Shown here piece by piece: positions 7,931 through 26,454 of a stretch of DNA of 30,808 nt. Position 1 is the stretch's first letter. Each line of letters starts with the position of its first letter. The notes beneath the pieces were generated by a model. It saw only the letters and a program-made list of their open reading frames with translations, ran no database searches and had not been told where the DNA came from. The stretch is from an uncultured delta proteobacterium (lineage in GTDB: Bacteria; Desulfobacterota; Desulfobacteria; Desulfobacterales; UBA2156). The stretch is taken from assembly GCA_963736855.1 (NCBI GenBank), contig CAVTQK010000018.1, positions 1 through 30,808 on the forward strand, in the 5' to 3' direction. Made by a program: the position numbers and the translations under genes.

Positions 7931-7935
7931 CTGTT

Positions 7936-8929: not shown

Positions 8930-9903
8930 GAATGAAAAGATCGTTATTAACGATGCTTCTCCTTGCTCTGTTGGTAGTTGGCCCTCCAGCTCATTTTGCC
9001 GGGGCGTCCGAGCCGGCGATTCGTATGGCCGTGCTGCAAAGTGATATTCACCAACTGGCGTTCTGGGTGGCATTGGAAAAAGGCTTCTTTACAAAGAACG
9101 GCGTTTCCGTCGAAGTTGCGGGTGTATTCAAGGCAGGGCCGGAAATCATGACGGCATTTTCTGCCGGAGAGCTGGATATGGCCTATGTGGGGGAAGCCCC
9201 CGCAACGACCGCTGTTGCCAACAAGGCCGCCAGCGTGGTTGTGGTGGCCCAGGTCAACACCGAAGGCTCGGCCCTGGTGATAGCGAAAGACAACACCGCC
9301 ATCAAAAGCCTGGCTGATTTAAAGGGCAAAACGGTGGCTATACCGGGACATTCAACAGTTCAGGATTTTTTACTTCGAAAGGCGCTGAAAAATGCTGGGA
9401 TCAACCTTGCGTTGGTCAACATTATAGTGCTAAAGCCGCCGGAAATGATCAGCGCGCTTCGCACTGGACAGATCGATGCCTTTATTTCCTGGGAACCCCA
9501 TCCGTCCAAAGCCGCTACCATGGGCGTGGGGAAAAACCTGACAACATCCGGCAGCATGTGGCCGGGACATCCGTGTTGCGTGCTGGTGACCGATAAGGGA
9601 TTTATCGCCAAACAGCCGGAAAAAGTCCGGGCCGTCGTGGCAGCGCATGTTCAGGCAACAGATTACATTCACCGTAATGCCGAGGATGCGATTGCCATCG
9701 GCGTTAAATCCACGGGCATGGATGAGGCTACTGTTCGAATGGCTATGCAAAACGTTCACTTTACCTATGAATTGAACGTCGAGGGAGAAAAAGAATATGT
9801 CCGGTTTCTCTCGGAACTCGGCCTTATTCGGATCGAGAATCCGGACGGATTTGCGGATCAATTTCTTCAGCCGAAAACCTTACGGAACATCCTGCATAAA
9901 TGA
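8926..9903 (+). CDS. ABC transporter substrate-binding protein, SsuA/NitT/TauA type
   Basis: Signal peptide; FKAGPEIMTAFSAGELDMAYVG, DLKGKTVAIP, IDAFISWEP, HPCC; ATGA overlap with the upstream stop codon. Confidence 0.9.
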   Translation: MRMKRSLLTMLLLALLVVGPPAHFAGASEPAIRMAVLQSDIHQLAFWVALEKGFFTKNGVSVEVAGVFKAGPEIMTAFSAGELDMAYVGEAPATTAVANKAASVVVVAQVNTEGSALVIAKDNTAIKSLADLKGKTVAIPGHSTVQDFLLRKALKNAGINLALVNIIVLKPPEMISALRTGQIDAFISWEPHPSKAATMGVGKNLTTSGSMWPGHPCCVLVTDKGFIAKQPEKVRAVVAAHVQATDYIHRNAEDAIAIGVKSTGMDEATVRMAMQNVHFTYELNVEGEKEYVRFLSELGLIRIENPDGFADQFLQPKTLRNILHK

Positions 9904-10655
9904 AAGGCAAGCGGATTATACCGACCATCGTGTTGCTGCTGGTGTGGCAGCTTCTGTGCGCCACCGGCGTGATACCGGCATTTAAACTGCCCTCACCGGT
10001 TCAGGTGGCGGCCGGTCTGGCGGATCTGATTTTTACGGGAATGCCTCCGGGGCATCCGTTGCATCTGCATGTTTACTACAGCCTGCAACGCGTTCTATTG
10101 GGGTATGTGCTGGCGCTGGCGACTGCCGTTCCCCTGGGACTTCTCATGGGATGGTCCAGAACCGTTTGCGCCATGATCGAGCCGTTGGTGGAAATCGTGC
10201 GCCCAATCCCTCCGCTGGCCTGGATTCCTCTTTCCATCCTCTGGTTCGGCATCGGTATCAAATCCGCGGCTTTTATTATCTTCCTAGGCGCTTTTTTCCC
10301 GATTCTCCTGAACACTATCAATGGGGTTCGCGGAATTGAACCGGTGCTTATCGAGGCGGCCAGAATGCTCAATGCCGGTCGGAGGTTTTTCTTTCTCAAT
10401 GTTCTCGTACCCGGCGCCATGCCCTCCATATTGACCGGCATGCGCATCGGTATCGGCGTGGGGTGGATGTCGCTGGTGGCGGCCGAATTTACCGGCGTCA
10501 AGCAGGGCTTTGGTTTGGGCTACATGATCATGACGGCACGCGACATTCAACGTTCTGATGAGATCATCGCCGGCATGCTCGTTATCGGCGCGATCGGCCT
10601 TGGAATTGACATCTGTCTGCAACTGGCCGAAAGGCATCTGATCCGGTGGCGATAA
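9900..10655 (+). CDS. ABC transporter permease, SsuC/TauC type
   Basis: RPIPPLAWIPL, LIEAARML, LVAAE; hydrophobic helices; ATGA overlap. Confidence 0.92.
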   Translation: MKGKRIIPTIVLLLVWQLLCATGVIPAFKLPSPVQVAAGLADLIFTGMPPGHPLHLHVYYSLQRVLLGYVLALATAVPLGLLMGWSRTVCAMIEPLVEIVRPIPPLAWIPLSILWFGIGIKSAAFIIFLGAFFPILLNTINGVRGIEPVLIEAARMLNAGRRFFFLNVLVPGAMPSILTGMRIGIGVGWMSLVAAEFTGVKQGFGLGYMIMTARDIQRSDEIIAGMLVIGAIGLGIDICLQLAERHLIRWR

Positions 10656-10664
10656 TGGAAGCTT

Positions 10665-11441
10665 ATGAGCATACGACTTGAAATAGCTGATCTAAAAAAA
10701 GTATACGTCGACAATACGTCTAAAAGCGACATCGACGTCTTTGACGGGATTAACTTCTCGGTTCAACAGGGGCAGATTTTCTCCATTGTCGGACCGAGCG
10801 GCTGCGGCAAAACCACGCTCCTGCGTCTGATCGCCGGGTTGGAGGAAAAGACTTCGGGAAGAATTCTGTTGGACGGTAAAATTCTTACCGGATGTGACGC
10901 GCAGGTGGGGATGGTATTTCAGGAGTACGCGCTGTTTCCCTGGCGAAAATTGGTCGAAAACATTGAAGTGGCGCTTGAAATCAAGGGTGTGGACGCCGCG
11001 GTTCGCCGTACCATGGCAATGCAGTATGTCCGGGATTTTGGCCTGGACGGATTTGAAAATGCTTTTCCCAAAGCGCTTTCCGGCGGCATGAAGCAGCGCG
11101 TGGCCATCGCGCGCACCCTGATTGCCAACCCGCAGGTGGTGTTGATGGATGAACCGTTCGGATCACTCGACAGTCAGACCCGAAATGTCATGCAGGAATT
11201 TCTCCTGAAAATCTGGGAAGAAAGAAAAGATACTATCCTTTTTGTCACCCATAACGTTGACGAGGCGGTATACATCGGCGACCGGATTGCCGTTTTATCC
11301 CCGCGCCCCGCCAGCATTTTGAAAATCTTTGATGTTGGTCTGGATCGGCCAAGGAATAGGACCGGAAAAGAACATAACCGGATCAGAAGCGATATTCTTC
11401 AATTGCTCAATGCCTCGGCAGCCACTCGTTCGTCATTCTGA
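10665..11441 (+). CDS. ABC transporter ATP-binding protein, SsuB/TauB type
   Basis: [46 protein letters not shown]. Confidence 0.93.
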
Positions 11442-11924
11442 AGCAGCTATAGCAATTGTCATATAGTAACCTAAACTGAGTGATTATGATTTTGAGTAGC
11501 AGCCATCCCCGAAAAACTCGGTGAAAATGGCTGGCGGCAGTGGAATCATCTTACGGCTACGATTCGATCTGCAACCAGCTAGGGCAACCCTTCAGCACCC
11601 TTTGACTGTCCAACCCTGTGGTCGTTTCTAATGGCCGCAACCCACCCTTGCGCCCTCAATTGCGGCTGGGAGAAATCCTCGCCGTTGATATTGGGGAAAA
11701 TCTCAAACGCTGATCCCATATAACGACTTAATATTGTTTTGATTATTTAAGATTTCACATCGAAAAAACTATAATTGTATCTCAAATGCGATCGTTGTAA
11801 TTTTCATAATTTTTTCATCTTCCCATCATGACTTTTGCAAATCAGTATTGTAAACATCCATACTATACAGTTCGGCTCCAACATCATTCAAAATCAATAC
11901 CACTAAACAAAGGAGGAGATTGAC

Positions 11925-12257
11925 ATGACTCAAAAAGATGAAGTGCAAAAGATCAATGATTTATTCGGTTATCTTGGAACGAATACGCCTGAGCAGACAA
12001 TGGCATTCGGCCCTTTCATGGAGGCTGTCGAAAAAGATGGAAAAGTCCCTTCAAAAATCAAAGAGGCAGTCGCTCTTGGAATCGCGATAAAAGCGCAGTG
12101 CACAGGTTGCATCGCATGGCATACGAAGAGAGCGCTTGAGAAGGGGTTTACGAAGGAAGAGATCCTTGAGATCGCGTGGGTTGCTGTTCTCTTGGGAGGA
12201 GGACCGTCGCTTACATATCTGTCATATGTCAAAGATGCCTTAGCGGAATTTGCATAG
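11925..12257 (+). CDS. Carboxymuconolactone decarboxylase / AhpD-like protein with CxxC (copy 1)
   Basis: 110 aa; KIKEAVALGIAIKAQCTGCIAWH, GFTKEEILE, GGGPS; AAGGAGGAG RBS. Confidence 0.9.
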   Translation: MTQKDEVQKINDLFGYLGTNTPEQTMAFGPFMEAVEKDGKVPSKIKEAVALGIAIKAQCTGCIAWHTKRALEKGFTKEEILEIAWVAVLLGGGPSLTYLSYVKDALAEFA

Positions 12258-12260
12258 GAA

Positions 12261-12372
12261 TGCGTAACCATGGCGAACCGCTGTTCAGATCGATCGCCGA
12301 ACAGGCATTCCAATTGATCCCGAACAGTGGTTCCCACTAATGCCGAACAGTTCTCGGAGCGAAGCGACGTTG
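12261..12372 (+). mobile_element. Orphan IS21-family-like terminal repeat region (copy 1)
   Basis: Starts TGCGTA; four ~23 bp-spaced (C)CGAAC(A/C)G motifs, then CGGAGCGAAGCGACG; no istA/istB follows. Confidence 0.6.
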
Positions 12373-12550
12373 TTTTCAAAGAACATCTGTCACTTAAAAG
12401 CAGGCTGCCAAGTCTATCGGGCAGGTTCGCTTTATCATTTCATGTTGCTGTCGAGTTCACTTGTATATGATCATAAACAGCTGTCAAGAGATTACAACTG
12501 CATGACCTCAACCTTTAAGCGCGCCACTGCGATCTATAAAGGAGGTTCAT

Positions 12551-12766
12551 ATGCCATTTGTCAATATCAAGATAATCGAAGGGGTATTCAATGATGAGCA
12601 GAAACGGGGAATTATTAAAAAGGTTACGGATACGATGGTTTCCATCGAAGGTGAAAACATGCGTCCAGTAACCTGGGTTGTCGTTGAAGAGGTAAAAAGC
12701 GGTGATTGGGGAATAGGCGGTAAAAGCATTACCACAAAAGATGTCATAGCGATGGCTAAAGGTTAG
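12551..12766 (+). CDS. 4-oxalocrotonate tautomerase family protein
   Basis: 71 aa; N-terminal MP (catalytic Pro1), EQKRGIIKKVT, WVVVEEV..GDWGIGG; AAGGAGG RBS. Confidence 0.92.
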   Translation: MPFVNIKIIEGVFNDEQKRGIIKKVTDTMVSIEGENMRPVTWVVVEEVKSGDWGIGGKSITTKDVIAMAKG

Positions 12767-12917
12767 TAACTATTTTATCGAAAGTATGCCGTTTATAAAA
12801 AATTCAACATTGCAGTGGCGCGTTTTCAAAAAACACCATATCGATAGCCCGAGTCGGGTATTTACCTTATCGATTTATCACCTCAATTTTGCATGTGATG
12901 TAGCTCAAAAATAGAAA

Positions 12918-13007
12918 ACCATCTGGGACTGCTGTATTATAGGGGTGTCAGCAAACAACCCTAAAAAGACAAGAGGTACCCAGATGGTAAAACAACTTAG
13001 GTCATAA
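12918..13007 (+). promoter_or_regulatory. Nested hairpin pairing an ATG and enclosing its RBS, with a 7-codon mini-ORF upstream of aor
   Basis: ACCATCTGGG (12918-12927) pairs with CCCAGATGGT (12979-12988); inner TAGGGGTGT/ACAACCCTA stem; ATG 12984 MVKQLRS stop 13007. Confidence 0.5.
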
Positions 13008-13023
13008 CAAAGGAGGACCATTC

Positions 13024-14766
13024 ATGGACAAGATCCTAAGAATCAATGTCGGCGCCGAGGGTGGGCCCAAGGCGGTCGTGGAATCGCTCGGCGGTTATGC
13101 GGGAATGGGCGGCCGCGGGCTGACATCCGCACTCATCGCCAAGGAGGTGCCGCCCCTGTGCCACCCGCTTGGCGAAGAAAACAAGCTTGTCATCGCCCCC
13201 GGAATGCTCAGCGGCACCACGGCGGCCATGTCGGGGCGGATCTCGGTCGGGTGCAAAGGCCCTCTGACCGGCACCATCAAGGAAGCCAATGCCGGCGGCC
13301 AGCCCTCGCAGATGCTCGCGCGCCTGGGGTATGCGGCGATCGTCCTGGAGGGAAAGCCGAAGGACGACACGCTCTATACGGTTGTCATCGACAAGGACGG
13401 CGTCAAAATCGAAGCGGACAACAGCCTGTGCATGCTCGGCAACTATGACACGGTGGCCAGATTGAAAGAGCGTTACGGCGAAGAGGTGTCGGTCATTTCC
13501 ATTGGGCCCGCCGGAGAAATGAAATTGGGGGCGGCATCCATCGCCTTTACCGACATGGAGCAGCGCCCTACCCGGCACGCCGCACGAGGCGGCGTGGGGG
13601 CGGTGATGGGCGCCAAGCGCATCAAGGCGATCGTTGTCGACGACACCGGCACGGCCATGCGGACACCCAAGGACCCGGAGGCATTCAAGGCGGCAAACCA
13701 GAAATTCGTGGCCGGACTCAAACAGCACCCGGTCACCGGCCAGGGGCTCCCCGCCTACGGCACCAATATCCTCACCAACGTCATCAACGAAGCCGGCGCC
13801 TATCCGACCCACAATTTTTCCACAGGAAAGTTCGCCGGTGCATCGAAAATCAGCGGCGAAACCCAGGCAGCGCTCGAAGAGGAGCGGGGCGGAAAGGGCG
13901 CCGCCACGCACGGCTGCCACCGCGGCTGTGTCATCCGGTGCTCCGGAACTTTCTACGACAAGATGGGGCGCTTTCTCACAAAGCAGCCCGAATACGAGAC
14001 TGTCTGGGCGCACGGGGCCAATTGCGGCATCGACGATCTCGACGCCATCGCTCAACTGGACCGGATGGACGACGATCTGGGGATCGATACCATCGAAGTG
14101 GGCGCCACCATTGCAGTGGCCATGGAGGCCGGCGTCGCCAAATTCGGCGATGCGGAAGCGGCCATCCGCCTGGTCGAGGAAATCCGCAAGGGGACTCCCC
14201 TCGGCCGCATTCTCGGCAGCGGTGCGACGGTGACCGGAAAAGTATTCGGGGTCGAACGGGTGCCCGCGGTCAAGGGGCAGGCCATGCCCGCCTACGACCC
14301 CCGCGCCATTCAGGGAATCGGGGTGACCTATGCCACCAGCACCATGGGGGCGGACCACACCGCCGGATACGCCATCGCCACCAACATCCTGGGTGTGGGC
14401 GGCAGCGTGGACCCGCTGAAACCCGAAGGGCAGGTCGAGCTTTCCCGCAATCTTCAGGTGGCCACCGCCGCGGTGGACGCCACCGGGATGTGCCTCTTCA
14501 TCGCGTTTGCCGTCCTGGATCAGCCCGAAACCTTCCAGGCGCTGATTGACATGATCAACGCATTCTACGGATTGAGCCTCACGGCCGACGATGTGGCCAA
14601 CCTGGGGAAGAACATCCTGAAAATCGAGCGGGACTTCAACCACAAAGCCGGCTTCACCTCCAAGGACGACAGGCTGCCGGCTTACATGTACAGAGAGAAA
14701 ATCGCCCCGCACAACGTAACCTTCCAGGTGAGGGACGAAGAACTGGATCAGGTGTTCAACTGGTGA
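13024..14766 (+). CDS. aor: Aldehyde:ferredoxin oxidoreductase (tungstopterin family)
   Basis: GMGGRGL, KGPLTGTIKEANAGG, AARGGVGAVMGAKRIKAI, CHRGCVIRC, PEYET, DDLGIDTIE, KGQAMPAYDPR, GADHT, DDRLP. Confidence 0.94.
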   Translation: MDKILRINVGAEGGPKAVVESLGGYAGMGGRGLTSALIAKEVPPLCHPLGEENKLVIAPGMLSGTTAAMSGRISVGCKGPLTGTIKEANAGGQPSQMLARLGYAAIVLEGKPKDDTLYTVVIDKDGVKIEADNSLCMLGNYDTVARLKERYGEEVSVISIGPAGEMKLGAASIAFTDMEQRPTRHAARGGVGAVMGAKRIKAIVVDDTGTAMRTPKDPEAFKAANQKFVAGLKQHPVTGQGLPAYGTNILTNVINEAGAYPTHNFSTGKFAGASKISGETQAALEEERGGKGAATHGCHRGCVIRCSGTFYDKMGRFLTKQPEYETVWAHGANCGIDDLDAIAQLDRMDDDLGIDTIEVGATIAVAMEAGVAKFGDAEAAIRLVEEIRKGTPLGRILGSGATVTGKVFGVERVPAVKGQAMPAYDPRAIQGIGVTYATSTMGADHTAGYAIATNILGVGGSVDPLKPEGQVELSRNLQVATAAVDATGMCLFIAFAVLDQPETFQALIDMINAFYGLSLTADDVANLGKNILKIERDFNHKAGFTSKDDRLPAYMYREKIAPHNVTFQVRDEELDQVFNW

Positions 14767-14777
14767 CAGTTCGTCGC

Positions 14778-14808
14778 AGGGGCGCCATCTCCCGGAGACG
14801 GCGCCCCT
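14778..14808 (+). terminator. GC-rich hairpin after aor
   Basis: AGGGGCGCC...GGCGCCCCT stem 12 nt after the stop; U-tract is weak. Confidence 0.55.
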
Positions 14809-14828
14809 TCAAAACCGAGAGCGACACG

Positions 14829-14942
14829 TATGCCGCCCTCGGTTCCTTGGCGCGCGACAAGAAGATCAAAATGTAAACCGTCATGGATGCGCAAAAACAG
14901 CTCGAAATCGATCCGGACAAGTTGAATCCTTTATGTGTCTGA
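14829..14942 (+). pseudogene. aceE: C-terminal remnant of homodimeric pyruvate dehydrogenase E1
   Basis: Manual translation YAALGSLARDKKIKM*TVMDAQKQLEIDPDKLNPLCV* resembles the AceE C-terminus (AALxxLA...IDxDKxNP); internal stop at 14874; sits directly upstream of E2. Confidence 0.75.
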
Positions 14943-15017
14943 CCGCCATTTTTTTGGTGAACCCGAAAAAGGAGTACGGTTGAGTCCCGTCTGAATAAAA
15001 GAAGAAAGAGAGCCGAT

Positions 15018-16378
15018 ATGATAAAAGAAATTCGAATTCCGGAAATCGGCGAGAACGTCGAATCCGGTAAAGTTGTCGGTGTGCTCGTAAAACCGGGAGA
15101 TCGTGTGGAGGCGGACGACGGCATCATCGAGGTGGAAACGGAAAAGGCCGTGGTAGAGATTCCTTCTCCGGAAAAAGGCCAAATCACCGAGATGCTCGTG
15201 AAAGAAGGCGACGGCGTGAAGGTGGGGGACGTGATTGCCAAATTGGAGACCGAAACAGATGGCGAAAAAGAGGAAGCGAGCAGCGGACCCGAAAAAATAA
15301 AGGAAAAAATTCGGAAAACCGAAAAACCCGAACAGCGGGAAGATGCAGAAAAAAGGAAAGCTCGGAAGACAGAAAATGCCGAAATAGAAGAGGCCAAATT
15401 AAAGACCGAACCGACGAAAAAGAGGTGCCGGTGGTAGAGGAAACTGGAAAGAAAAATGCGCCCGTGGACGGCTCCATTCCGTCATCCCCATCGGTTCGTC
15501 GTTTTGCAAGGGAATTGGGCGTAGATCTACGACAAGTGGACAGTACCGGTCCAAGCGGCAGAATAACCGAATCGGATGTAAAGGCTTTCATCAAATCGAT
15601 GGGAACCTCCAAGGACATTGGAGAAAAAAGAATCGGAGCGGCTGAAATCGGGATGCGGGACTTGCCGGATTTGAGCCGGTGGGGGGAAGTCGAAGCAGTC
15701 GAATTGTCCACGGTTCGCAGGCTCATCGCTCAAAGTACGGCGGTTTCCTGGCAGACCGTTCCGCATGTCACCCAGTTTGAAGAAGCGGACGTTACTCATT
15801 TGGAAGAATTTATCGGCGCGCATGCGGAAAAAATCAGGCAAACCGGCGGCAAACTGACCATAATCGCGGTAATCATCAAAATCTGCGCCGCGGCACTGAA
15901 GCGCTTTCCACAATTCAACGCGGCCATCGATACGGCAAACAATCGAATCGTGTATCGCAAGTATGTACACATCGGCATGGACGTGGATACGGAAAGAGGG
16001 TTGGTGGTGCCGGTAATCCGAAATGCCGATAAAAAGAGCATCTCGGATTTGGCAAGGGAAATCGTGGATCTGTCAGAACGGACCCGCAACAAAAAGATCA
16101 AACCCGACGAACTGGAAGGAGGCGGTTTCACGGTTTCCAATCAGGGCGGTATCGGCGGCACTCAGTTTACGCCAATCGTTTTGTGGCCGCAGGCTGCCAT
16201 CATCGGCATCAGCCGAGCCTCGGTTGTGCCGCGTTATATCGAGGGCGGCTTTGAACCGCGCACGGTTTTGCCTTTGGCGCTTTCCTATGATCATCGTATT
16301 GCCGACTGCGCGGATGCCGCGCGCTTTTTGCGATGGGTCCGAGAAAGCATCGAACAGCCGATGACGATCTTTTTGTAA
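15018..16378 (+). CDS. aceF: Dihydrolipoamide acyltransferase E2 (single lipoyl domain; frameshift near 15420)
   Basis: Lipoyl domain VETEKAVVEIPSP, E3-binding SPSVRRFARELGVDL...GPSGRITESDV, catalytic domain VPHVTQF...SYDHRIAD. Confidence 0.9.
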
Positions 16379-16405
16379 CGATTATGAAAGGAATAGGACT
16401 GTAAA

Positions 16406-17833
16406 ATGAACGACAACAGGACACAACTGGTGGTGATCGGTGGCGGTCCAGGCGGATATGCAGCGGCTTTTTTAGCCGGTGATCTGGGTATGGAAGTTAC
16501 CTTGGTGGATCCGCGGGAAAATCCGGGTGGTGTGTGTTTGTATGAAGGATGCATTCCGTCGAAGGCGCTTTTGCATGTGGCCAAGGTCATCGGCGAAGCG
16601 CGCGCGGCACGCGAATGGGGCGTTACGTACGGGGATCCGAAAATCGATGTGGAAAAGCTTCGCGGGTGGAAAAATGGTGTGGTCGAAAAACTGACCGGTG
16701 GTCTCGGACAGTTGGTCCAGCGCCGAAAAATCCATCATGTGAGGGGCACCGCCGTATTTTCGGACGATCATACGCTTTCCATCGATACGCTGGAAGGGGA
16801 AAAACAGGATCTCCGGTTCGAACAGGCCATTATCGCCACCGGATCCCATCCTGTCGCCGTGCCGGGCTTCGATTTTGATTCAAAACATGTAATCCATGCG
16901 AAAGGCGCGCTTTCGATTCCGGACATACCGAAAAAACTGCTGGTGGTCGGCGGCGGGTACATCGGTTTGGAACTTGGATCTTTTTATGCCGCGATCGGTT
17001 CGAAGGTAACGGTGGTGGAAATGACGCCGAATCTGTTGCCGGGGGTCGATAAGGATCTGGTGCGGGTGCTGCAAAAACAGGTGCGGGACAACTTCGAAAA
17101 TATATTTCTTCAAACTATGGCAAAAGAGCCGAAAGTGCAGAAAGATGGCGTGCATGTGACCTTGTCGGGAAAAGAAATAGAATCTAAGATAATGATTTTC
17201 AATAAAGTTCTCATTGCGGTGGGAAGAAGACCGAACACCAAAGGGCTCGGTCTTGAAAAGGCGGGTGTGGAAATCGACGACCGTGGTTTTATCAAAACCG
17301 ACGAACAGAGGCGAACGGCGGCCGGACATATTTTTGCCATCGGCGATGTGGCCGGCGATCCGATGCTGGCGCACAAAGCCTCTTATGAAGGGCGGCTTGC
17401 CGTCGAAGTCATTTCCGGGAAAAAATCGATTTACGATCCGGCCGCGGTGCCGGCGGTGGTATTTACGGATCCGGAAATCGCCTACGCCGGGCTGAGTGAA
17501 AGCGAGGCCAAGGAAAAAGGTATTTCTCATCAAGTCGTACGATTCCCCTGGGGTGCGTCGGGGCGCGCGGCTACGATGGCCCATTCGGAAGGAATGACCA
17601 AAATGATCGTGGACACCGAGACCGAGCGGATTTTGGGAATCGCAATGGTCGGCTCGGGCGCCGGTGAACTCATTGCCGAAGGCGTGCTGGCCATCGAAAT
17701 GGCCGCCAATGTGACCGATGTGGCGCTGAGCATTCATCCACACCCCACGCTCAGTGAAACGATCAAGGAAGCGGCGGAAGGGTTTCACGGGACCGCCACC
17801 CATTATCATAGCCCCAAACGGAAGGGGAAGTAG
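16406..17833 (+). CDS. lpdA: Dihydrolipoamide dehydrogenase E3
   Basis: GGGPGGY, redox disulfide CLYEGCIPSK, GGGYIGLE, AIGD, HPHPTLSE. Confidence 0.96.
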   Translation: MNDNRTQLVVIGGGPGGYAAAFLAGDLGMEVTLVDPRENPGGVCLYEGCIPSKALLHVAKVIGEARAAREWGVTYGDPKIDVEKLRGWKNGVVEKLTGGLGQLVQRRKIHHVRGTAVFSDDHTLSIDTLEGEKQDLRFEQAIIATGSHPVAVPGFDFDSKHVIHAKGALSIPDIPKKLLVVGGGYIGLELGSFYAAIGSKVTVVEMTPNLLPGVDKDLVRVLQKQVRDNFENIFLQTMAKEPKVQKDGVHVTLSGKEIESKIMIFNKVLIAVGRRPNTKGLGLEKAGVEIDDRGFIKTDEQRRTAAGHIFAIGDVAGDPMLAHKASYEGRLAVEVISGKKSIYDPAAVPAVVFTDPEIAYAGLSESEAKEKGISHQVVRFPWGASGRAATMAHSEGMTKMIVDTETERILGIAMVGSGAGELIAEGVLAIEMAANVTDVALSIHPHPTLSETIKEAAEGFHGTATHYHSPKRKGK

Positions 17834-17922
17834 CGGCTGGAAACATGGGGCAAGGAGTGACACCTGAAGCTTATTCGGTTGGGGTATAAGAAATATATGA
17901 GTCTAACCAAAACTCGGATCTA

Positions 17923-18744
17923 ATGCGAAAAGCACTCCATAATACCAAAGAGAACCGCCTGGATGAAGTTACCACGAACTTGCAGTCTCTGTCTGGTGGG
18001 ATGAGCATGGCTGCAGCTCACCATGCCCATCGAGGCAGCTGGTGGCTGGTCGATCTGCCGGTGGTAGCTTACGCCCCGGCGCTTGATCTGCAGCATCGGG
18101 TGTTGTCTGCCGTTCAGAACAAGACTTTTGTCGGCGGAGTGATACTGATGCTGGAACATTCACCGGTTTACACTTTAGGCCGTCGGGGCGGGCGCGACAA
18201 TCTGTGTGTAGCGGACGATGTCCTTGCTCAAGCCGGCATTGACCTGGTTTCGACAGAACGTGGTGGGGATATAACCTACCACGCTCCTGGCCAGCTGGTG
18301 GTCTATCCCATTGTCGATCTAAAAAAAGCCCGCCTGGGGGTGGTCGATTTTGTATCGGCTTTGGAGGAGGTCATGATCCTCACCGCTGCAGACTTTGGGA
18401 TTGATGCCGTACGCAATGAACTAAACCGTGGCGTTTGGATCGGAACAAAAAAGCTCGGCAGTATCGGTATTGCCGTTCGGTGCGGTGTCAGCTTCCACGG
18501 ACTGGCGCTCAATGTGAACACAGATTTAACGCCTTTTGGGTGGATCAACCCGTGCGGTTTGAGCGGTATTGGTGTAATTTCGCTGCAAAATGAACTCAAA
18601 AAAACCATCGAAATGGCCCAAGTCCGCCATGCCATGGTCAAAAGCATAACCAAAGTCTTCAATATTAAATTGCACAAGCAAACGCCAGAAACGCTCTTTA
18701 AGTGGCTCTCTGTTACCATTGACATGGAAAACCTATGCCTGTAA
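17923..18744 (+). CDS. lipB: Lipoyl(octanoyl) transferase (true start may be ATG 18001 or 18007)
   Basis: LEHSPVYTLG, RGGDITYHAPGQLVVYP, KKLGSIG, HGLALNV, INPCG. Confidence 0.94.
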   Translation: MRKALHNTKENRLDEVTTNLQSLSGGMSMAAAHHAHRGSWWLVDLPVVAYAPALDLQHRVLSAVQNKTFVGGVILMLEHSPVYTLGRRGGRDNLCVADDVLAQAGIDLVSTERGGDITYHAPGQLVVYPIVDLKKARLGVVDFVSALEEVMILTAADFGIDAVRNELNRGVWIGTKKLGSIGIAVRCGVSFHGLALNVNTDLTPFGWINPCGLSGIGVISLQNELKKTIEMAQVRHAMVKSITKVFNIKLHKQTPETLFKWLSVTIDMENLCL

Positions 18745-19619
18745 ATCAAACAACATCAAAACCACCTTGGCTGAAAAAGCGCCTGCCGATCGGTCATGCC
18801 TACGAAAAGGTCAAGGACCTTCTGGCCAGAGAACATTTACACACAGTCTGTCAGGTGGCCCGCTGCCCCAATATCTGGGAATGCTTTTCTAAACAGACCG
18901 CCACCTTTCTGATTTTGGGTGACCGCTGCACCCGCAACTGTGGGTTTTGTGCGGTCTCAAACAATATACCAGCCCCACTCGATCCCGATGAACCTGAGCG
19001 CGTGGCTGCAGCCGCCGAAAAACTGGGCCTGGTGGGGGTGGGGGCCTATGTGGTGGTGACATCGGTCACTAGGGACGATCTGGCCGACGGTGGCGCCGGT
19101 CATTTTGCCCGCACCATCGGCGCTATTAGAAAGCTCAGCCCCGAAACGCTGATAGAGGTGTTGATCCCCGATTTTCAGGGCAATTCTAATGCCCTTGCTA
19201 CCGTGCTGGCGGCTCGACCAGATGTGCTGAACCACAACATCGAAACAGTGCCCGATTTATATGCAACCGTCCGGCCCCAAGCCGACTATAAGCGTTCCAT
19301 CAACCTTATCGCCCGAGTCCATGCTGAAACTCCACAAATTGCAACTAAGTCGGGTATCATGCTTGGCCTGGGGGAAGACTCATCGGCGGTAAAAGGGGTA
19401 TTTGAAGATCTTCTGGCGGCCGGATGCCTTGTTTTGACCATCGGCCAGTATCTGCAGCCGTCGCCAGCCCATCTGCCGGTGGTGCGCTACATAACCCCGG
19501 CGGAATTTAAAACCTGGCGAAAAATCGCTGTCGATATGGGTTTTGTCGAAGTCGCCAGTGGCCCGTTTGTTCGCAGCTCTTACGACGCCAAAAAGCTATT
19601 TGACGCCATCAAAACCTAA
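18735..19619 (+). CDS. lipA: Lipoyl synthase
   Basis: KPPWLK, CX4CX5C (CQVARCPNIWEC), CTRNCGFC, NHNIETV, GQYLQP, VRSSY. Confidence 0.96.
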   Translation: MPVNQTTSKPPWLKKRLPIGHAYEKVKDLLAREHLHTVCQVARCPNIWECFSKQTATFLILGDRCTRNCGFCAVSNNIPAPLDPDEPERVAAAAEKLGLVGVGAYVVVTSVTRDDLADGGAGHFARTIGAIRKLSPETLIEVLIPDFQGNSNALATVLAARPDVLNHNIETVPDLYATVRPQADYKRSINLIARVHAETPQIATKSGIMLGLGEDSSAVKGVFEDLLAAGCLVLTIGQYLQPSPAHLPVVRYITPAEFKTWRKIAVDMGFVEVASGPFVRSSYDAKKLFDAIKT

Positions 19620-19626
19620 GGAGCTT

Positions 19627-21594
19627 TCATCTATTCCTTTCTGGACTTGAATTGTGAAATCGGTAACCCATACCTGGAACAGTCTCGATCAACGATGCTT
19701 TCTCACTCATCTTTTTCCTTAACGATCGGATAACCGCATCGATAACATTACTTCCGCCATCGTATTTATACCCCCAAACATCGTCCAATAAAGATGCTCG
19801 AGTGCATACTTTTCCCTCCCGATGATAAAGATAGTTCATGACTTTGAATTCAAGAGGCGTTAATCTCACTCGCTTCCCATCAATTAACAATTCACGTGCT
19901 TCTGTATCAAAGAATTTATCGGGCTCAATTCCGATCTCGGCATCAACAAGGCTGCTTAGCCACCCTCCGACTAAGGACGATCCAAAGTCGACCACGGCAC
20001 TGAAGTATCGTTTTCCATCCAGTTGCACATCAATGTGATCCAACACCTTAAAACCGAGTGTTTTCCAGACCGGAAAATAAGGACCTGGATCATGGAGGGT
20101 TACATAAACCCTCCTGAGATACTGTCGCAGCTCTATGTATGTACGTTTGATATCCAACCAGCATGCTGCCTGAACTGGTGAAGGAGCCTCACCATTCTCT
20201 GTAGCGAGCCATCTGCGAATAAAAAGAGCTTTTTGCTTTTCGGGAATCGGATCATGCCGAAGATGTTCACACCAGCTCCAGATTACAGGATCCTCCTTAA
20301 GGAGGGATCGCTTGACGGTTTGTGGATTGAACATGAAATAAAATCCTGAGATCATCCCATTCTTATCGCGCACGACATTAAATGAATTCGGCAAATGTTT
20401 CCACCACCATTCGACACATGCGGAGGCTTGCGGACCATCCTTTTGCTCAGAAATTGCGTGAATAGCCTTCATATCTCCCGGCTTTGCCGGTTCAACGGTA
20501 TAAGGCTGCGAAGCCCCGGGGAAAAAAGCTTCCCGGATGATCGGATTTTCTATAATATACAGCAAATCAGCGGTATACCGCCAAAGTTCGGCCTTGCCGG
20601 CTGTATTCATTTCTTTACGTAGTTGGGTCCACGCGGCCTTTCGAAATAAACGGTACCTGTTTGGGTCTGATGCTTTTAGAGAAGATGCGATTGTTTGTCG
20701 GACCGTATCATGAACGATAAGCCCGTCCCTGCCGCTTTCCACAAAAGGAAATCCACGAAGCCGCTCATATGCATCTTGAGGAGCGGCATGGGGAAGCATC
20801 GCATAAAGGAGTGAATGGGTCGTGCGGCGGATGACTGAGGAGGCATCAAGTATTTCTCGACTTAAGGGATCTTGCACATCAGAAGTGTATATGTTGGTGA
20901 GCTCCTCAACAACATGCTGGGCTACAATTTCTCTAAGGTTAAGAAAGGGTCGCTCTTTCAATGCGGCAGCTGCAAGTTTAAGTGCCAAGGGATGCCCGCG
21001 TGCGAATCGGTTGATATTAAAGGCTTCATCTTCTTTCACGCCTAATCTTAAAAGTAGTTCAATAGCTTCATTATCCTTCAAAGATTCTAACCTGATACTT
21101 TGAAACAATCCCTGCCAACCGGGTTCAACCAACCATGAAGATACCGGAGGTTCACGCCCAAAGAAGAATACACGCACATTATCACCCAGGGCCGGGACAA
21201 AGACCTGACGAAGCCACGTATCCATAAGTCGGAAAACTTCAAATGTGTCAAGAGCAAGCACCACCCGCTCCCCGAGTTGCCCCAATCTGTCTGCTACATC
21301 CTCCGGGGTTGTGTGATCACCGCCGATGGCTGAATTAAGACGATAAATGAATCCTTTCTCTGTCGGTTCTATGGATCGGCAATCAAAACCAACTACAGTA
21401 GCCCCTCGCTTTCGTGCTTCTTCCGTAAATGCTTCTAAGAGAATCGATTTCCCGATACCTCCAATTCCATGGATATGGGTAACAACCGGGCTCTCCTGCT
21501 CCAAAACTTTAAGCAGAATCTCAATCTCTTCCGCTCTTCCCGTAAAGTTCTTTAAAGCCTGTTGTGTCAGCAGATCCTTCATCTTATGAACCAT
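19627..21594 (-). CDS. P-loop NTPase with C-terminal OmpR/PhoB-type winged-helix domain, transcriptional regulator
   Basis: FTGRAEE, Walker A GIGGIGKS, Walker B LALDTFE, GHPLAL; C-terminal LTPLEFKVMNYL...VWGY...SNVIDAVIRSLRKK...IETVPGMGY. Confidence 0.88.
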   Translation of the reverse strand: MVHKMKDLLTQQALKNFTGRAEEIEILLKVLEQESPVVTHIHGIGGIGKSILLEAFTEEARKRGATVVGFDCRSIEPTEKGFIYRLNSAIGGDHTTPEDVADRLGQLGERVVLALDTFEVFRLMDTWLRQVFVPALGDNVRVFFFGREPPVSSWLVEPGWQGLFQSIRLESLKDNEAIELLLRLGVKEDEAFNINRFARGHPLALKLAAAALKERPFLNLREIVAQHVVEELTNIYTSDVQDPLSREILDASSVIRRTTHSLLYAMLPHAAPQDAYERLRGFPFVESGRDGLIVHDTVRQTIASSLKASDPNRYRLFRKAAWTQLRKEMNTAGKAELWRYTADLLYIIENPIIREAFFPGASQPYTVEPAKPGDMKAIHAISEQKDGPQASACVEWWWKHLPNSFNVVRDKNGMISGFYFMFNPQTVKRSLLKEDPVIWSWCEHLRHDPIPEKQKALFIRRWLATENGEAPSPVQAACWLDIKRTYIELRQYLRRVYVTLHDPGPYFPVWKTLGFKVLDHIDVQLDGKRYFSAVVDFGSSLVGGWLSSLVDAEIGIEPDKFFDTEARELLIDGKRVRLTPLEFKVMNYLYHREGKVCTRASLLDDVWGYKYDGGSNVIDAVIRSLRKKMSEKASLIETVPGMGYRFHNSSPERNR

Positions 21595-21820
21595 TGGTAT
21601 AGTCTCCTGATGATAGATCGGGCTTCTCGTTACTCCGTTTAATCTGCTGTTCTTTATCCGAAAAAGGGAAGTTTGATGAGTTCGTGGAATCTATTAATTT
21701 TGGCTTCCGGTTCAATCCTACGGACTGTGGATGGTACCATTAATATAAAAAATAGGCAATCGCAATATGCAGAGTACACAGGGTCACCTTATGTAACCTT
21801 GGTACGCAACTTGCCTTCTT

Positions 21821-21990
21821 GGGCCTACCGCATCAGTCGTCATCCACAAGCCAAACCACTCGATATTTAAGGAGGTTACACCATGACCCATGCTAACGAT
21901 ATCCCCTTCGCCAAACATCTCGACAGCATCCGGGCCCCCTGTCGTCACAACACCCGGCACCTCAAATCGATCGTTGTGAAATTTTCATAA
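21821..21990 (+). mobile_element. Putative ISAs1-family left end and transposase 5' fragment
   Basis: GGGCCTACCGCATC resembles an ISAs1-type end; AAGGAGG then ATG 21883 MTHANDIPFAKHLDSIRAPCRHNTRHL resembles the ISAs1 transposase N-terminus; runs into the duplication at 21961. Confidence 0.45.
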
Positions 21991-22106
21991 TTTTTTCATC
22001 TTCTCATCATGACTTTTGCAAATTATTATTATAAACATCATACTATACAGTTCGGCTACAACATCCTTGAGAAATCAATAACACTGAATCCAAGGAGGAG
22101 ATTGAC

Positions 22107-22439
22107 ATGACTCAAACAGATGAAGTGCAAAAGATCAATGAATTATTCGGTTATCTTGGAAATAATACGCCTGAGCAGACAAACGCCTTCGGTCCATTCA
22201 TGGAGGCTGTCGAAAAAGATGGAAAAGTCCCTTCAAAAATCAAAGAGGCAGTCGCTCTTGGAATCGCGATAAAAGCGCAGTGCACAGGTTGCATCGCCTG
22301 GCATACGAAGAGAGCGCTTGAGAAGGGGTTTACGAAGGAAGAGATCCTTGAGATCGCGTGGGTTGCTGTTCTCTTGGGAGGAGGACCGTCGCTTACCTAT
22401 CTGTCATATGTCAAAGATGCCTTAGAGGAATTTGCATAG
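22107..22439 (+). CDS. Carboxymuconolactone decarboxylase / AhpD-like protein with CxxC (copy 2)
   Basis: 105/110 aa identical to copy 1 (K4T, D12E, T19N, M26N, A107E); CTGCIAWH retained. Confidence 0.9.
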   Translation: MTQTDEVQKINELFGYLGNNTPEQTNAFGPFMEAVEKDGKVPSKIKEAVALGIAIKAQCTGCIAWHTKRALEKGFTKEEILEIAWVAVLLGGGPSLTYLSYVKDALEEFA

Positions 22440-22442
22440 GAA

Positions 22443-22556
22443 TGCGTATGCCAGGGCGAACCGCTGTTCAGATCGACGCCGAACAGGCATTCCAATTGAT
22501 CCCGATCAGCGGTTCCCACTAATGCCGAACTGTTCTCGGAGCGAAGCGACGCTGTT
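22443..22556 (+). mobile_element. Orphan IS21-family-like terminal repeat region (copy 2)
   Basis: TGCGTA start, periodic CCGAAC motifs, CGGAGCGAAGCGACGC. Confidence 0.6.
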
Positions 22557-22624
22557 TTCAAAGGGGTTCTGATTGTCACTTAACCCTACAACGAAACTTA
22601 TCACTAATTCAAAGGAGGTGCAGC

Positions 22625-23221
22625 ATGGTACCATTGAAGCCGGGTTGGCAAATTAAGGGAACGTATAATGAGGCCTGTGCCTCAGAAGGGCCCTGCCCTT
22701 ATTATTTCGGCAGGGACAAAGTAGGTGGTTGCCGATACTTTATGGTTTTCAGGATCCAGGAAGGAAAAGTCAATGATGTTGATCTTTCCGGGATTACGAC
22801 TATGTATATGGGTGACATACCCCACCCGTCTTTTGAAGAGCTGATGAATCTCGGATCAGAGGGAGCGATCTACATAAGCGATAACGCCACCCCGAACCAG
22901 CGCGAGATCCTTGATACCTTGGCCGTTGAAAGCCTCGGTGGTGTCTTGATGAAAAAAGTCTACGGCGTCAAATACGTAAAGATGGACATTAAAGAAGAGA
23001 ATGGCACGGTACATTTCAAAATGCCGTTTGGGGAGATGAACCAATATCTATCTAAGGGAGGTGACGGCAGTACGCCCGTGCGTCTTGAAAACCAAGTCCT
23101 CCCCATGCTGACGGACGTGAAAACCTGCCATACTCCGGTTTGGAGCTTCAAGGATCATGGAAGGCATTTCGACTATAAGGACGTCTGTGGCGTCTGGGCC
23201 GACTTCGCTTTTGCCGGATAG
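22625..23221 (+). CDS. DUF1326-like protein
   Basis: WQIKGTYNEAC...CP, FRIQEGKVNDVDLSG, IYISDNATPNQREIL pattern; AAAGGAGG RBS. Confidence 0.72.
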   Translation: MVPLKPGWQIKGTYNEACASEGPCPYYFGRDKVGGCRYFMVFRIQEGKVNDVDLSGITTMYMGDIPHPSFEELMNLGSEGAIYISDNATPNQREILDTLAVESLGGVLMKKVYGVKYVKMDIKEENGTVHFKMPFGEMNQYLSKGGDGSTPVRLENQVLPMLTDVKTCHTPVWSFKDHGRHFDYKDVCGVWADFAFAG

Positions 23222-23410: not shown

Positions 23411-23620
23411 ATGGCAAAAAATCTCAGATGGGAAGAACTCTGGTCACCGCTCGAAATTAAAGGTGTAAAGTTCAAGAACAGGATGATGCGCTCGGGTACG
23501 TATGAAGGCATGGCAACAGAGCAGGGAAAGGTCACACCGCAGTTAGAGTGGTGGATTGCGAGGCAAGCAGCAGGGGGAGCAGCCTGTATTTTTCCCGGCT
23601 ATTTGCACGTTTGCCTGTTA
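23411..23620 (+). pseudogene. Truncated NADH:flavin oxidoreductase (old yellow enzyme family), N-terminal ~70 aa only
   Basis: LWSPLEIKGVKFKNRMMRSGTYEGMA...ARQAAGGAACIFPGY; family resemblance stops near 23615; AGGAGG RBS. Confidence 0.8.
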
Positions 23621-23898
23621 CGGTCACACCTTTGGCGATCTGCCTCCCCGGCTCCAGCAAGACCTGCAGATGACTCACCGGCCACCCGGAATCGACTACG
23701 GCAACCGGTCCGGATCCAGTATAACAAACGGAGCGGAATCGGGGTCGTACCAAACAAACCAATTGATGGCTTAGTAACAGTTTAGTCTCTCCCTACCGCG
23801 AGGTGGATGTACCGATGTACCCCGGCAGGGAAAGAATGCCGTCTATCGGAATACGCCTCGCCATTCGAAGTCAAACCTTGTCGGAAAAGAATCAGAGA

Positions 23899-25434
23899 TC
23901 AACTGGAGTTATTATACAGAGCCGCCTGAGCCGTAGCGGTATCGGCGGTGAGGAGGGTTTCGAGGAAATCCCTTGGCAAGACACCCTGCCTTCGGGCGGT
24001 TTGGACCAGGCTGGGAAGAATGCTGTGGGTTATCAGACCGCTATCCGAGCGGGTGCCGAAACATATCTTGCGGAAGATCACCAGATGGCGAAGAGACTGT
24101 TCGGCCAGATTATTGGTGGGCGGCACCCCGGGTCGTCGGAGGAAGGTAAATAGAAATTCCTGTTGGGGTCCGGCGAGATAGGCCCGGAGGGTCTCGGCGG
24201 GTTTAAAGGGCAGCGGATGTTTAGAGAGGAGGGCGAGTTCCCTGGAGAATCGTTTTTCCATAGGGGCCGCATTCTTCCAGGGGATAGCGCCGGATTTCAG
24301 TTGTTGCCCGGCCAGGCAGAGTCGTGAGGCCAGGTCCATAAGGCGATCGCAGAAGGGACCGGTGGCAGCGTCCCTCTCGGACTCCGGCAGGAGCGCCTGC
24401 TCCCGGCTGATTTCCTTGGCCTTGGTGATGATATGGGCCAGGCAGGATTGCCAGTCCCTGCCGATACCGTTATAGGCGGCATAGCGGTCGCGCACCAGCG
24501 TGCCGTTAAAGTCTTCTCCGAAAAGGGCTTGGGCCACCTCGGCCGACCGATGCCGGTCGATATGAAAGAAGGCGAGGTTTTCATTGCCGGCGAACCAGAC
24601 GAAATGCCCCAGGCCGTCATTGCGCCAGGAGGTTTCGTCGGCATGGACCACGTCGGAGGCCCTGATCTTCTGGCGCAAGTCCTCATAGATCGGCGCACCC
24701 CGGGCCGCCGCTTTGCGATCGAACCCCAAGGCGGAAGCCGGAACAAACTTAAGTCCGAACAATTCCCGGAACAACTCCGCCGTTTTTCTATAGGGAAGGC
24801 CCATCCGGTAGCGTAAATAGATGGCTGCCGACTTGGCGACCGGCCCGATGGGGGCGTTTAAAAGTTCGCCCTCGCCCGCCTGAACTACCGGCTGATGGCA
24901 CCGCCTACAGAACGCTTGTCCATGCCGATAGCGGGTAACCCGGGTGCGGGGTTGGAGGACGATATCTTCCTGGAGATGGTCCTGGATTTCGGCCAGGGGC
25001 GTCAAGTCGTTGGATTGGCAATGGGGGCAGACGGTCGGGGCCGGCACCTCCACCGTCCGGTCAATGTGGTCCGGCTGGGGCCTGCTCCAGCCCGGATGTC
25101 CCACCGGGGCCCCCCGCTTTTTCTTTTTTTCCGGGGACGATGGAACTCCCTCGCTAGCCGGCACGTTTTTCTTGCTCGGCTTAAATTGTCTTTGGTGTAA
25201 GGCCCGCAGTTTCGCCTTGAGTTCCGCATTCTCTCGCTCCAGGACGCGTACCCGCTCATTCTGGGCCTTTAAGGCCGGGTCAAAGGCCTCAATGATCCGC
25301 AGATGTTCCTGGTATTCCTCGCCGGCCCGCCGGTACTCCTCCAGAACCCAGGTGGTGGACAGCCAGTCCAGATAGGGACAGGAGTGTTGGTAGACACACT
25401 TAAAATCATGGGACGGATAGGGAGGCAGTCGCAT
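23899..25434 (-). CDS. IS66-family transposase (TnpC-like)
   Basis: Coiled coil, KKRGAPVGHPG, CPHC...CRRC, HADETSW, LVRDRYAAY, WQSCLAH, PTNNLAEQSLR. Confidence 0.93.
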   Translation of the reverse strand: MRLPPYPSHDFKCVYQHSCPYLDWLSTTWVLEEYRRAGEEYQEHLRIIEAFDPALKAQNERVRVLERENAELKAKLRALHQRQFKPSKKNVPASEGVPSSPEKKKKRGAPVGHPGWSRPQPDHIDRTVEVPAPTVCPHCQSNDLTPLAEIQDHLQEDIVLQPRTRVTRYRHGQAFCRRCHQPVVQAGEGELLNAPIGPVAKSAAIYLRYRMGLPYRKTAELFRELFGLKFVPASALGFDRKAAARGAPIYEDLRQKIRASDVVHADETSWRNDGLGHFVWFAGNENLAFFHIDRHRSAEVAQALFGEDFNGTLVRDRYAAYNGIGRDWQSCLAHIITKAKEISREQALLPESERDAATGPFCDRLMDLASRLCLAGQQLKSGAIPWKNAAPMEKRFSRELALLSKHPLPFKPAETLRAYLAGPQQEFLFTFLRRPGVPPTNNLAEQSLRHLVIFRKICFGTRSDSGLITHSILPSLVQTARRQGVLPRDFLETLLTADTATAQAALYNNSS

Positions 25435-25436
25435 GG

Positions 25437-25715
25437 TTATTTGGACTGCAAGTTCAGGATCTCCCGGTTGACATTGGAGAGCTTTTGCAGAAGGAACCAG
25501 AGATGCTGGTACCGCCTGCTCATCTCCAAAGCCATGGGAACGAGGTCCTTACGGACATAAAACGTTACGGTCTTTCCCTCCGCCTTGGTGGTCAGGTTGT
25601 AGCCGCTCATGGAAGGGGACTTGGCGACCGTCCCGATCAGGAAAGTATCGAGCAGGGAGGCAATTTCTTCCCTGAGACTGGCTTGGCGCTGTTTTAGGAT
25701 TTCGCTCCGGCCCAT
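25437..25715 (-). CDS. IS66-like element accessory protein (DUF6788-like)
   Basis: 92 aa from ATG 25715 with GGAGG RBS; YNLTTKAEGKTVTFYV...L.KLSNVN; directly upstream of the transposase within the inverted repeats. Confidence 0.65.
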   Translation of the reverse strand: MGRSEILKQRQASLREEIASLLDTFLIGTVAKSPSMSGYNLTTKAEGKTVTFYVRKDLVPMALEMSRRYQHLWFLLQKLSNVNREILNLQSK

Positions 25716-25762
25716 TTTAAACCCTCCGCTACTATGAGTATATTTACTCATATAATTAGAAC

Positions 25763-25796
25763 AAAAAAAAGCCCACAAATCAATAGAATTGTGGGC
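25763..25796 (-). terminator. Rho-independent terminator-like hairpin inside the IS66-like end
   Basis: On the - strand GCCCACAA...TTGTGGGC followed by T8. Confidence 0.6.
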
Positions 25797-25920
25797 GCGT
25801 GAACAAAAAAGTTTCCAAAGGACTAAAAAAGGACTAAACTGTTACGCGGATTCAACCCAGGAAAAGCGGGACGTTCTTGAATTCGTTGAATTACTATTAA
25901 ATTTATGGCCGCGGACCCAC

Positions 25921-26381: not shown

Positions 26382-26454
26382 TGAAAAGGGGGACGTTGTT
26401 CACTTCATTCAGAAATATATTTACAAGGGAAGCCAAATAGAGTAGGAAGGTCCT

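Follow-up and report, generated by a model that had tools for sequence, protein, structure and literature searches.

We analyzed a stretch of 30,808 nucleotides (the window), contig C18 of a 3.91 Mb genome assembly (GCA_963736855.1, here G000; 25 contigs, 100% complete, 2.8% contaminated) from an uncultured member of the Desulfobacterales. Its central part holds what appears to be the remnant of a pyruvate dehydrogenase (PDH) operon, aceE-aceF-lpdA-lipB-lipA, in which the E1 component is reduced to a stub, together with two genes for small AhpD-like proteins of the carboxymuconolactone decarboxylase (CMD) family. An earlier note on this DNA proposed that the operon had been pruned into a dihydrolipoamide-dependent reductase, in which E3 and a lipoylated E2 hand electrons to the CMD proteins, and named chance juxtaposition as the alternative.

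All that is left of E1 at the locus is the extreme C-terminus of an AceE-type enzyme (38 codons; 14826-14939, + strand), recognized by comparison with AceE orthologues and interrupted by an in-frame TAA at 14874-14876. The stub was matched by tblastn at an E value of 0.002-0.003 and shares 22 of 36 residues with the nearest of 33 orthologue C-termini, an ordinary figure for such a distance (L166 and L184, mis-anchored and with longer C-termini, were left out). As its conservation equals that of intact C-termini, the cut in aceE can be recent. Searches with the TIGR00759 profile and six AceE proteins found no other aceE piece in the assembly. An AceE-type PDH has a whole homodimeric E1, of which this assembly holds the stub only. 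The claim that E1 survives as a 38-codon stub is therefore right for the AceE type but not in general, as intact sucA and E1α/E1β genes lie elsewhere in the genome.

Just 5' of the stub, as previously noted, stands a gene for an aldehyde ferredoxin oxidoreductase (AOR; 13024..14766, +, assigned by family search) with a 79% identical paralogue on contig C15. Folding revealed a GC-rich hairpin without a U-tract 3' of AOR (14778..14807, +). Its stability, -31.1 kcal/mol for 14764-14826 (z -4.19), was equaled in none of 200 shuffles, and it is probably a terminator or an mRNA end. No sigma70-like site was found between AOR and E2, and promoter and terminator scans gave counts at chance level (14 vs 12.0 and 19 vs 15.6, respectively). 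Among 24 sequencing runs with matching words, three (two labelled sediment, one unlabelled) shared at least half of the words and possibly come from the source sample. Two RNA runs, with 0.13-0.15 of words matched, gave no evidence of expression.

The E2 that follows is of the AceF type and lies in two open reading frames (ORFs). The 5' piece (15018..15437, +; PF00364) comprises one lipoyl domain, with Lys43 in an ETEKA motif, and a linker, while the 3' piece (15425..16378, +; family search) comprises the E3-binding and acetyltransferase domains. Where five A stand in a row (15417-15421), a 1-base frameshift parts the lipoyl domain, whose lipoylation motif is kept, from the E3-binding domain. 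E2 is present, as had been claimed, and has all three domains, but it is a frameshifted gene with an altered catalytic motif. In place of the DHRxxDG of an AceE-type PDH, found as DG in 113 of 113 orthologues, it reads DHRxxDC (Gly>Cys, 16307-16309). Together with Ala>Asp (15980), Ser>Ala (15923), Lys>Arg, and Leu>Ile, this change strikes residues common to the E2p of Escherichia coli and Azotobacter vinelandii. The catalytic His, Asp, and Ser are kept, and two further changes are E. coli's own residues. The changes at the Gly, Ala, and Ser sites would fit loss of function. Both DC and Ala>Asp recur in two independent JGI fragments (P0091 and P0212), which indicates that both are genuine and predate this strain. 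The shared DHRxxDC changes mark a lineage of eroded AceF.

Changes at invariant columns were used as a proxy for selection instead of dN/dS (near-identical copies were protein-only, and orthologues were ~60% identical). Compared across 38 orthologous loci, the acetyltransferase domain (15665-16378) was changed at 5 of 32 such columns, with no other row exceeding 3 of 35, and E3 at 1 of 88 (Fisher p 0.005). In a comparison with 113 orthologues from databases, 11 of 116 columns of the E2 core were changed; the median was 0.9%, and none was as high. The E3-binding domain was eroded as well, at 5 of 23 columns at a 90% threshold (0 of 108 orthologues as bad). The expectation that the lipoyl domain would be better kept than the catalytic domain was not borne out statistically, neither for the lipoyl domain versus the core (Fisher p 0.36-0.57) nor for the lipoyl and E3-binding domains together (p 0.29-1.0); the comparison either had too little power or pointed in the opposite direction. 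The E2-core branch was not lengthened relative to E3 (ratio 0.80 vs 0.90 for the tree). An eroded core is what a pruned reductase predicts, but it would also be expected if E2 were simply decaying after being orphaned.

The split frame of E2 has to be read against the background of this assembly. When genes of another genome (G003) were placed on G000, 7 frameshifts were counted in 80.5 kb, affecting 6 of 67 genes (~0.09 per kb coding; 14 of 81 genes were excluded as probable wrong-strand ORFs). One of the affected genes we take to be purA. On the contig of the window, an AIRS-like gene and a gene for an ABC ATPase also show frame breaks. At the background rate, a gene as long as E2 would have an 11% chance of a frameshift, and the homopolymer context suggests that the E2 frameshift is probably a long-read error. 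Over the lengths that were searched, the protein collection contained no near-identical protein spanning the site, neither a full-length E2 nor a lipoyl fragment. Broken genes in G000 should not be called pseudogenes without reads.

These numbers bear on whether the whole arrangement is an assembly artefact, with AOR and stub mis-joined or a minority rearrangement captured, aceE whole, the E2 frameshift a long-read indel, and the DC-type E2 divergent but working. Such an account draws on the frequency of frameshifts in ordinary genes and on the lack of excess decay in the stub. It also draws on a contrast in the protein collection, where E2, E3, LipA, and the tautomerase near CMD1 have 90% relatives and AOR has none. 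We nevertheless regard it as very unlikely. A complete, 25-contig assembly offers no other piece of aceE, the stub carries an internal stop, the AOR-stub junction lies 15 kb from either contig end and outside repeats, and the Gly, Ala, and Ser changes in E2 fit loss of function.

Downstream of E2, the E3, lipB, and lipA genes reported earlier are indeed present, all scoring over the cut-off of their family profiles. They are an intact E3 (lpdA; 16406..17833, +; TIGR01350, 499 bits), an intact octanoyltransferase LipB (17923..18744, +; TIGR00214), and the lipoyl synthase LipA (18735..19619, +; TIGR00510). E3 keeps its redox CxxxxC and C-terminal HPTxxE motifs. Relative to a 94% identical copy, 2 of its 27 differences fall at conserved columns, vs 31% of columns being conserved. 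LipA keeps both Fe-S motifs and RSSY, and its 4-residue insertion and E41V are common to an independent copy. With 3 of 103 and 2 of 45 invariant columns changed, LipA and LipB are inside the range of equally isolated orthologues (the mis-framed LipA row of contig C15 was ignored). By this proxy, neutral decay of lpdA or lipAB, which the earlier note held would refute its proposal, was not seen.

We then considered the CMD genes. CMD1 (11925..12257, +; PF02627 and TIGR00778) encodes a 110-aa AhpD-like protein with a CTGC motif, Glu47, and His66. It lies in the first copy (11781..12381, +; upstream region, CMD1, and 125 nt downstream) of a 94% identical direct repeat of ~600 nt, the second copy of which (21961..22563, +) contains CMD2 at 22107-22439. 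The two proteins differ at 5 of 110 residues. Profile scores were 35.2 bits for TIGR00778 (cut-off 27.8) and 52-53 for PF02627 (cut-off 23), and the best PDB match of CMD2 was 5dik (E 2e-18). Glu47, Cys59, Cys62, and His66 are spaced as Glu118, Cys130, Cys133, and His137 of AhpD, with Gly at the His132 site, and E47, C59, and H66 were invariant in 30 aligned homologues. This set corresponds to four of the five relay residues of the Mycobacterium tuberculosis AhpD, of which His132 is not absolutely conserved (PMC3141380). A gamma-carboxymuconolactone decarboxylase activity, hinted at by the tautomerase neighbor, is less likely, since the protein has CxxC and gamma-CMD enzymes are described as being without the CxxC set (PMC3141380).

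The nearest named homologues of CMD2 are from DPANN archaea (Woesearchaeota, Nanoarchaeia, and Ca. ainarchaeum; 64-81% identity), and cross-domain transfer is possible from the sequence comparison. Among 400 genomes of the phylum, none had a member of this clade above 48% identity, and a viral scan with the CMD alignment gave no match.

The two near-identical CxxC genes do bracket the PDH block, in their direct repeat, but they are not its direct flanks. Between CMD1 and the stub lie a 4-oxalocrotonate tautomerase-family gene (12551..12766, +; PF01361), AOR, and the strong hairpin. Between lipA and CMD2 lies a 655-aa AAA and winged-helix regulator (19627..21594, - strand; PF13191/PF00486), convergent with lipA and divergent from CMD2. 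The CMDs are outside the E2-lipA transcription unit.

Instead of forming a dedicated unit with the lipoyl genes, as had been suggested, CMD belongs to regulator-CMD-DUF1326 and CMD-tautomerase units found without the lipoyl block. CMD2 is followed by its usual downstream partner, a DUF1326 protein (22625..23221, +; PF07040). In the metagenome locus L136, regulator, CMD, and DUF1326 are 97% identical at the nucleotide level, with no lipoyl gene in 15.7 kb. In the independent JGI protein P0222, the tautomerase carries an N-terminal extension encoded by the last part of the CMD repeat, which makes CMD-tautomerase a unit of its own. Matched by size, the CMD and DUF1326 clusters have five other contigs in common (13,217; 118,629; 120,913; 176,640; and 247,388 nt), which were absent from the incompletely listed E2, E3, LipA, and LipB clusters. 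Relatives of the regulator amounted to four distant plasmid matches and one in 300 genomes of the class, without CMD or DUF1326 in 11 kb. GC content at third codon positions was 0.43-0.47 for CMD, tautomerase, and regulator, 0.80 for AOR, and 0.54-0.60 from E2 to lipA, separating three origins. Near-identical copies of neighboring genes were from Desulfobacterales, Desulfobacteraceae, and Desulfatirhabdiaceae.

The rest of the genome contains much of what the block could supply. A search for intact E1 genes, which the earlier note had called for, found no other aceE but did find an intact sucA-sucB-lpd on contig C17 and an intact E1α-E1β-E2-CMD operon without E3 on C15 (721.6-725.2 kb; 721588-725220). 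A second C15 operon (305-311 kb; 305600-311354) reads acs-E1α-E1β-E2-(small ACP-like ORF)-CMD and is frameshifted, and contig C9 has an E1α/β pair without E2. In all, the genome has one intact E1α/β pair and two with frameshifts. There is a second lipA on C15, a second lipB beside gcvH on C9, and a third, frameshifted lpd on C16. A single PF01597 match passed the cut-off, and it belongs to the glycine cleavage operon of C9. The genome also has 10 POR-family matches, 2 thioredoxin reductases over cut-off, 5 AhpC/TSA matches, and 1 OsmC, none of these last six on the contig of the window. Two AhpC/TSA-family matches (C9:372962-373357 and C15:361687-362061) contain an in-frame TGA and are possible selenocysteine peroxiredoxins. 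Given the other intact E1s, lipA/lipB, gcvH, and two more lpd genes, private lipoate synthesis or a private E2/E3 is unneeded. Judged by gene content, the block is redundant for lipoylation and E3, and pyruvate would be able to go through POR.

The same inventory raises the idea that the block serves dehydrogenases elsewhere, providing E3, LipB, LipA, and perhaps E2 to the two E3-less C15 operons or the E2-less C9 pair. Those partial operons need E3 and lipoylation in trans, and E3, LipA, and LipB are intact. We consider it quite unlikely, however, as lpd is present twice more in the genome, lipA and lipB have further copies, and the E2 core is eroded. Moreover, this E3 is missing from genome G005 (94% complete), which does have the C9 pair (94%) and the C15 operon.

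The arrangement was not found again. With the E3 of the window as query (E <= 1e-155), 400 other genomes of the order yielded close orthologues in 41, and 11 genomes of the same family yielded none. E1 and E2 were adjacent at 32 of the 41 loci, 8 were cut by a contig end before E1, and 1 was a lone E3. No CMD, lipA, or lipB lay near any of the 41 orthologues within the fetched stretches. In a species-level collection, 0 of 35 loci combined E2-E3 with CMD in the absence of E1; at two of them a CMD lay at a distance of 4-5 kb, but one of these has aceE and the other is truncated by the contig start. A recurrent CMD, E2, E3, and lipAB cluster lacking E1, for which the earlier note had called for a search, was therefore absent from both sets. 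This absence and the presence of intact E1s elsewhere in the genome come to, or close to, two of the outcomes that the note had named as refuting its proposal. The lone E3 orthologue (L324; G312:C82, 15192-16730) stands near apr/qmo-like and ApbE-like genes, with no E1 or E2.

A different linkage emerged when the E2-linked CMD of C15 was used as query, a choice that favors its own orthologues. Matches came from 26 other genomes of the order, kin genomes not being independent. In 17 of these, E1α/β lay within the fetched 4.7-18 kb of CMD, with E2 in 16 and E3 in none. Among the CMD-linked loci, five also had LplA, and genome G287 reads E1α-E1β-E2-CMD-lipB-lipA-gcvH. E3-less E1α-E1β-E2 operons ending in or beside a CxxC CMD were seen at L045 and L046 (the two C15 operons of this genome) and at L200, L201, L234-L237, L272-L277, L281, L286, L287, L290, L291, L325, and L326. 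In a quick tree (113 columns, many forks open), the E2-linked CMDs fell in several clades and the CMD of the window in a separate one. With the latter as query at phylum level, a lipoyl gene lay within 1.5 kb at 5 of 29 loci. The gene content of the window is the reverse of these clusters, with E3 present and E1 absent.

CxxC AhpD-like genes thus stand in the place of E3 in several independent 2-oxoacid or acetoin dehydrogenase operons of the order, two of them in this genome. A candidate E1-fed route would have CMD take electrons from dihydrolipoyl-E2 in these operons. This pattern outside the window is the sturdier lead and makes the question of what oxidizes dihydrolipoyl-E2 in anaerobes directly testable.

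For the window itself, we lean towards a patchwork island, in which an imported, E1-less PDH remnant and a mobile AhpD-like module lie next to each other. The remnant would stem from a horizontally acquired aceE-aceF-lpdA-lipB-lipA operon that lost aceE and its promoter when AOR and its hairpin joined the last 38 codons. The AOR-stub junction is observed, and deletion in this manner is the presumed mechanism. The acetyltransferase core of E2, now without its E1, has drifted, and E3, LipB, and LipA are still intact. Lying downstream of the hairpin, these three may be weakly expressed. The CMDs are part of a distinct mobile thiol-redox unit, consisting of regulator-CMD-DUF1326 and a duplicated promoter-CMD before the tautomerase. 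We also counted towards a mosaic the IS66 element, REP transposase, and truncated flavoprotein gene that follow the module at 23.4-27.5 kb. A mosaic of mobile pieces is favored over a selected unit. As a single case, a truncated operon beside a mobile thiol-redox gene matters little.

Judging from its motif and from biochemistry in M. tuberculosis and Corynebacterium glutamicum, CMD most likely works like AhpD. A dihydrolipoyl protein would reduce the Cys59-Cys62 disulfide, and CMD would then reduce peroxiredoxins, OsmC, or other disulfides. Lipoyl donors open to it would include SucB, two other E2s, GcvH, and the E2 of the window if it is made. Flow from NADH through E3 and a lipoyl group to CMD may occur as a by-product, the block not having been pruned for it.

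Several observations weigh against the patchwork. No invariant column of the lipoyl domain was changed in either count (0 of 20 and 0 of 9). The DC-type changes in E2 are old and shared with P0091 and P0212, whose frames are nevertheless open; the E2 of the window is itself stop-free, with at most one real frameshift. The linkage of CxxC CMD to lipoyl genes is real elsewhere, in the form where E1 is kept and E3 is absent. The absence of the five shared contigs from the lipoyl clusters is weak, because the cluster listings are incomplete (the L136 regulator itself is unlisted). The match of L136 to the window starts exactly at the lipA stop codon, just after what is presumably the end of an IS630 transposase. 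That boundary would thus be the work of an insertion sequence (IS), and lipA may once have stood there. L136 accordingly says less about whether the module arose independently, its left boundary being an IS end with only 2.8 kb of contig beyond.

Part of this evidence would suit a dedicated E1-less relay kept by selection, the core of the earlier proposal. LipB and LipA would lipoylate E2, E3 would reduce it with NADH, the CMDs would pass electrons to peroxides or disulfides, and the eroded catalytic domain would serve as a scaffold. AhpD-type residues are kept in CMD, the lipoyl domain is clean at strict thresholds, and lipA-regulator adjacency may predate L136. The erosion of the E2 core, highest among the 113 orthologues and exceeding that of E3, is also in line with such a relay, as are E3 differences that avoid conserved columns and LipA and LipB counts normal for equally isolated orthologues. 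However, a second example was absent from the 41 and 35 loci searched, the genome is redundant, and the block is without a peroxiredoxin. The lipoyl and catalytic domains do not differ significantly, and the E2-core branch is not raised. The CMDs are not co-transcribed with the block, whose native promoter is gone and which has the hairpin ahead of it and no sigma70-like site between AOR and E2; a real frameshift would cut the lipoyl domain off the E3-binding domain. On balance, we find a pruned reductase unlikely, although its intact E3, LipA, and LipB beside an eroded E2 core stand as predicted. If it were true, an anaerobe would here have trimmed a central-metabolism complex to a thioredoxin-independent reductase, and an E2 with a decayed catalytic site would be a ready test protein.

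We are similarly doubtful of a version in which the repurposed PDH acts as an NADH-driven dihydrolipoyl source for a DPANN-related AhpD-like protein, on a mobile redox island among sediment anaerobes. Fed by E3, it would mirror the E1-fed E1α-E1β-E2-CMD operons that recur in the same order.

AhpD of M. tuberculosis is reduced by lipoyl-DlaT, itself reduced via E1 or E3 (PMC12995895), and the AhpDs of C. glutamicum draw on Lpd, SucB, and NADH (PMC10460364, PMC8945050). As an ordinary E2 serves in both organisms, an AhpD-like gene calls for no private E2/E3. Like the Lpd-DlaT-AhpD-AhpC chain and the C. glutamicum pathway, this genome has E3, lipoyl-E2, a CxxC AhpD-like protein, and, on other contigs, peroxiredoxins and OsmC as candidate acceptors. 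In those systems, E2 is the ordinary working PDH/KDH core with no special operon, whereas the E2 of the window is an E1-less, eroded AceF. The adaptor differs too: it is a single-hairpin protein of 110 aa that has Gly where AhpD has His132. AhpC is not linked.

Compared with the aceE-aceF-lpdA operons of Desulfobacterales and relatives, the window has the same order of stub, E2, and E3, with E2 and E3 60-66% identical to orthologues behind a whole aceE. In contrast to those operons, aceE and the promoter are deleted, E2 is frameshifted and carries DG>DC, and lipB-lipA is appended. The CMD shares its length, sequence-level fold family, and E-x11-CxxC-x3-H pattern with small AhpD-like/CMD proteins (PF02627, TIGR00778; PDB 5dik, 7y4r, 3bey, 1vke) but forms its own clade with DPANN named members, and is duplicated and mobile. 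Stand-alone lipoyl carriers that work without a 2-oxoacid dehydrogenase and have lipoylation genes of their own are known from GcvH-L/LplA2/SirTM (PMC12440151) and from LbpA of sulfur oxidizers (PMC6067878). These pair GcvH-like carriers with ligases in conserved operons; the window pairs a remnant E2 with LipB/LipA and was found once. Neither an E1-less E2-E3-lipAB-AhpD cluster nor E1-E2-CMD operons turned up in print, in a search that covered few subscription journals and no supplements.

Elsewhere in the window, 6403-11441 contains an MSMEG_0568-family radical SAM gene, a GNAT gene, the AIRS-like gene, whose frame breaks near 8335, and genes for a sulfonate-type ABC transporter. These follow genes for an MtaA-like methyltransferase, an arginase-like protein, and a methylmalonate-semialdehyde dehydrogenase and have near-identical copies in other Desulfobacterales. 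At 23411-25778, a gene start without a Pfam match is cut off near the IS66 element; judging from a motif, it is presumably that of an NADH:flavin oxidoreductase. The REP-associated tyrosine transposase lies, with a DUF433/DUF5615 (PIN-like) pair, between two arrays (25920-26384 and 28230-28818) of purine-rich 7-nt repeats that have duplicated sequence downstream.

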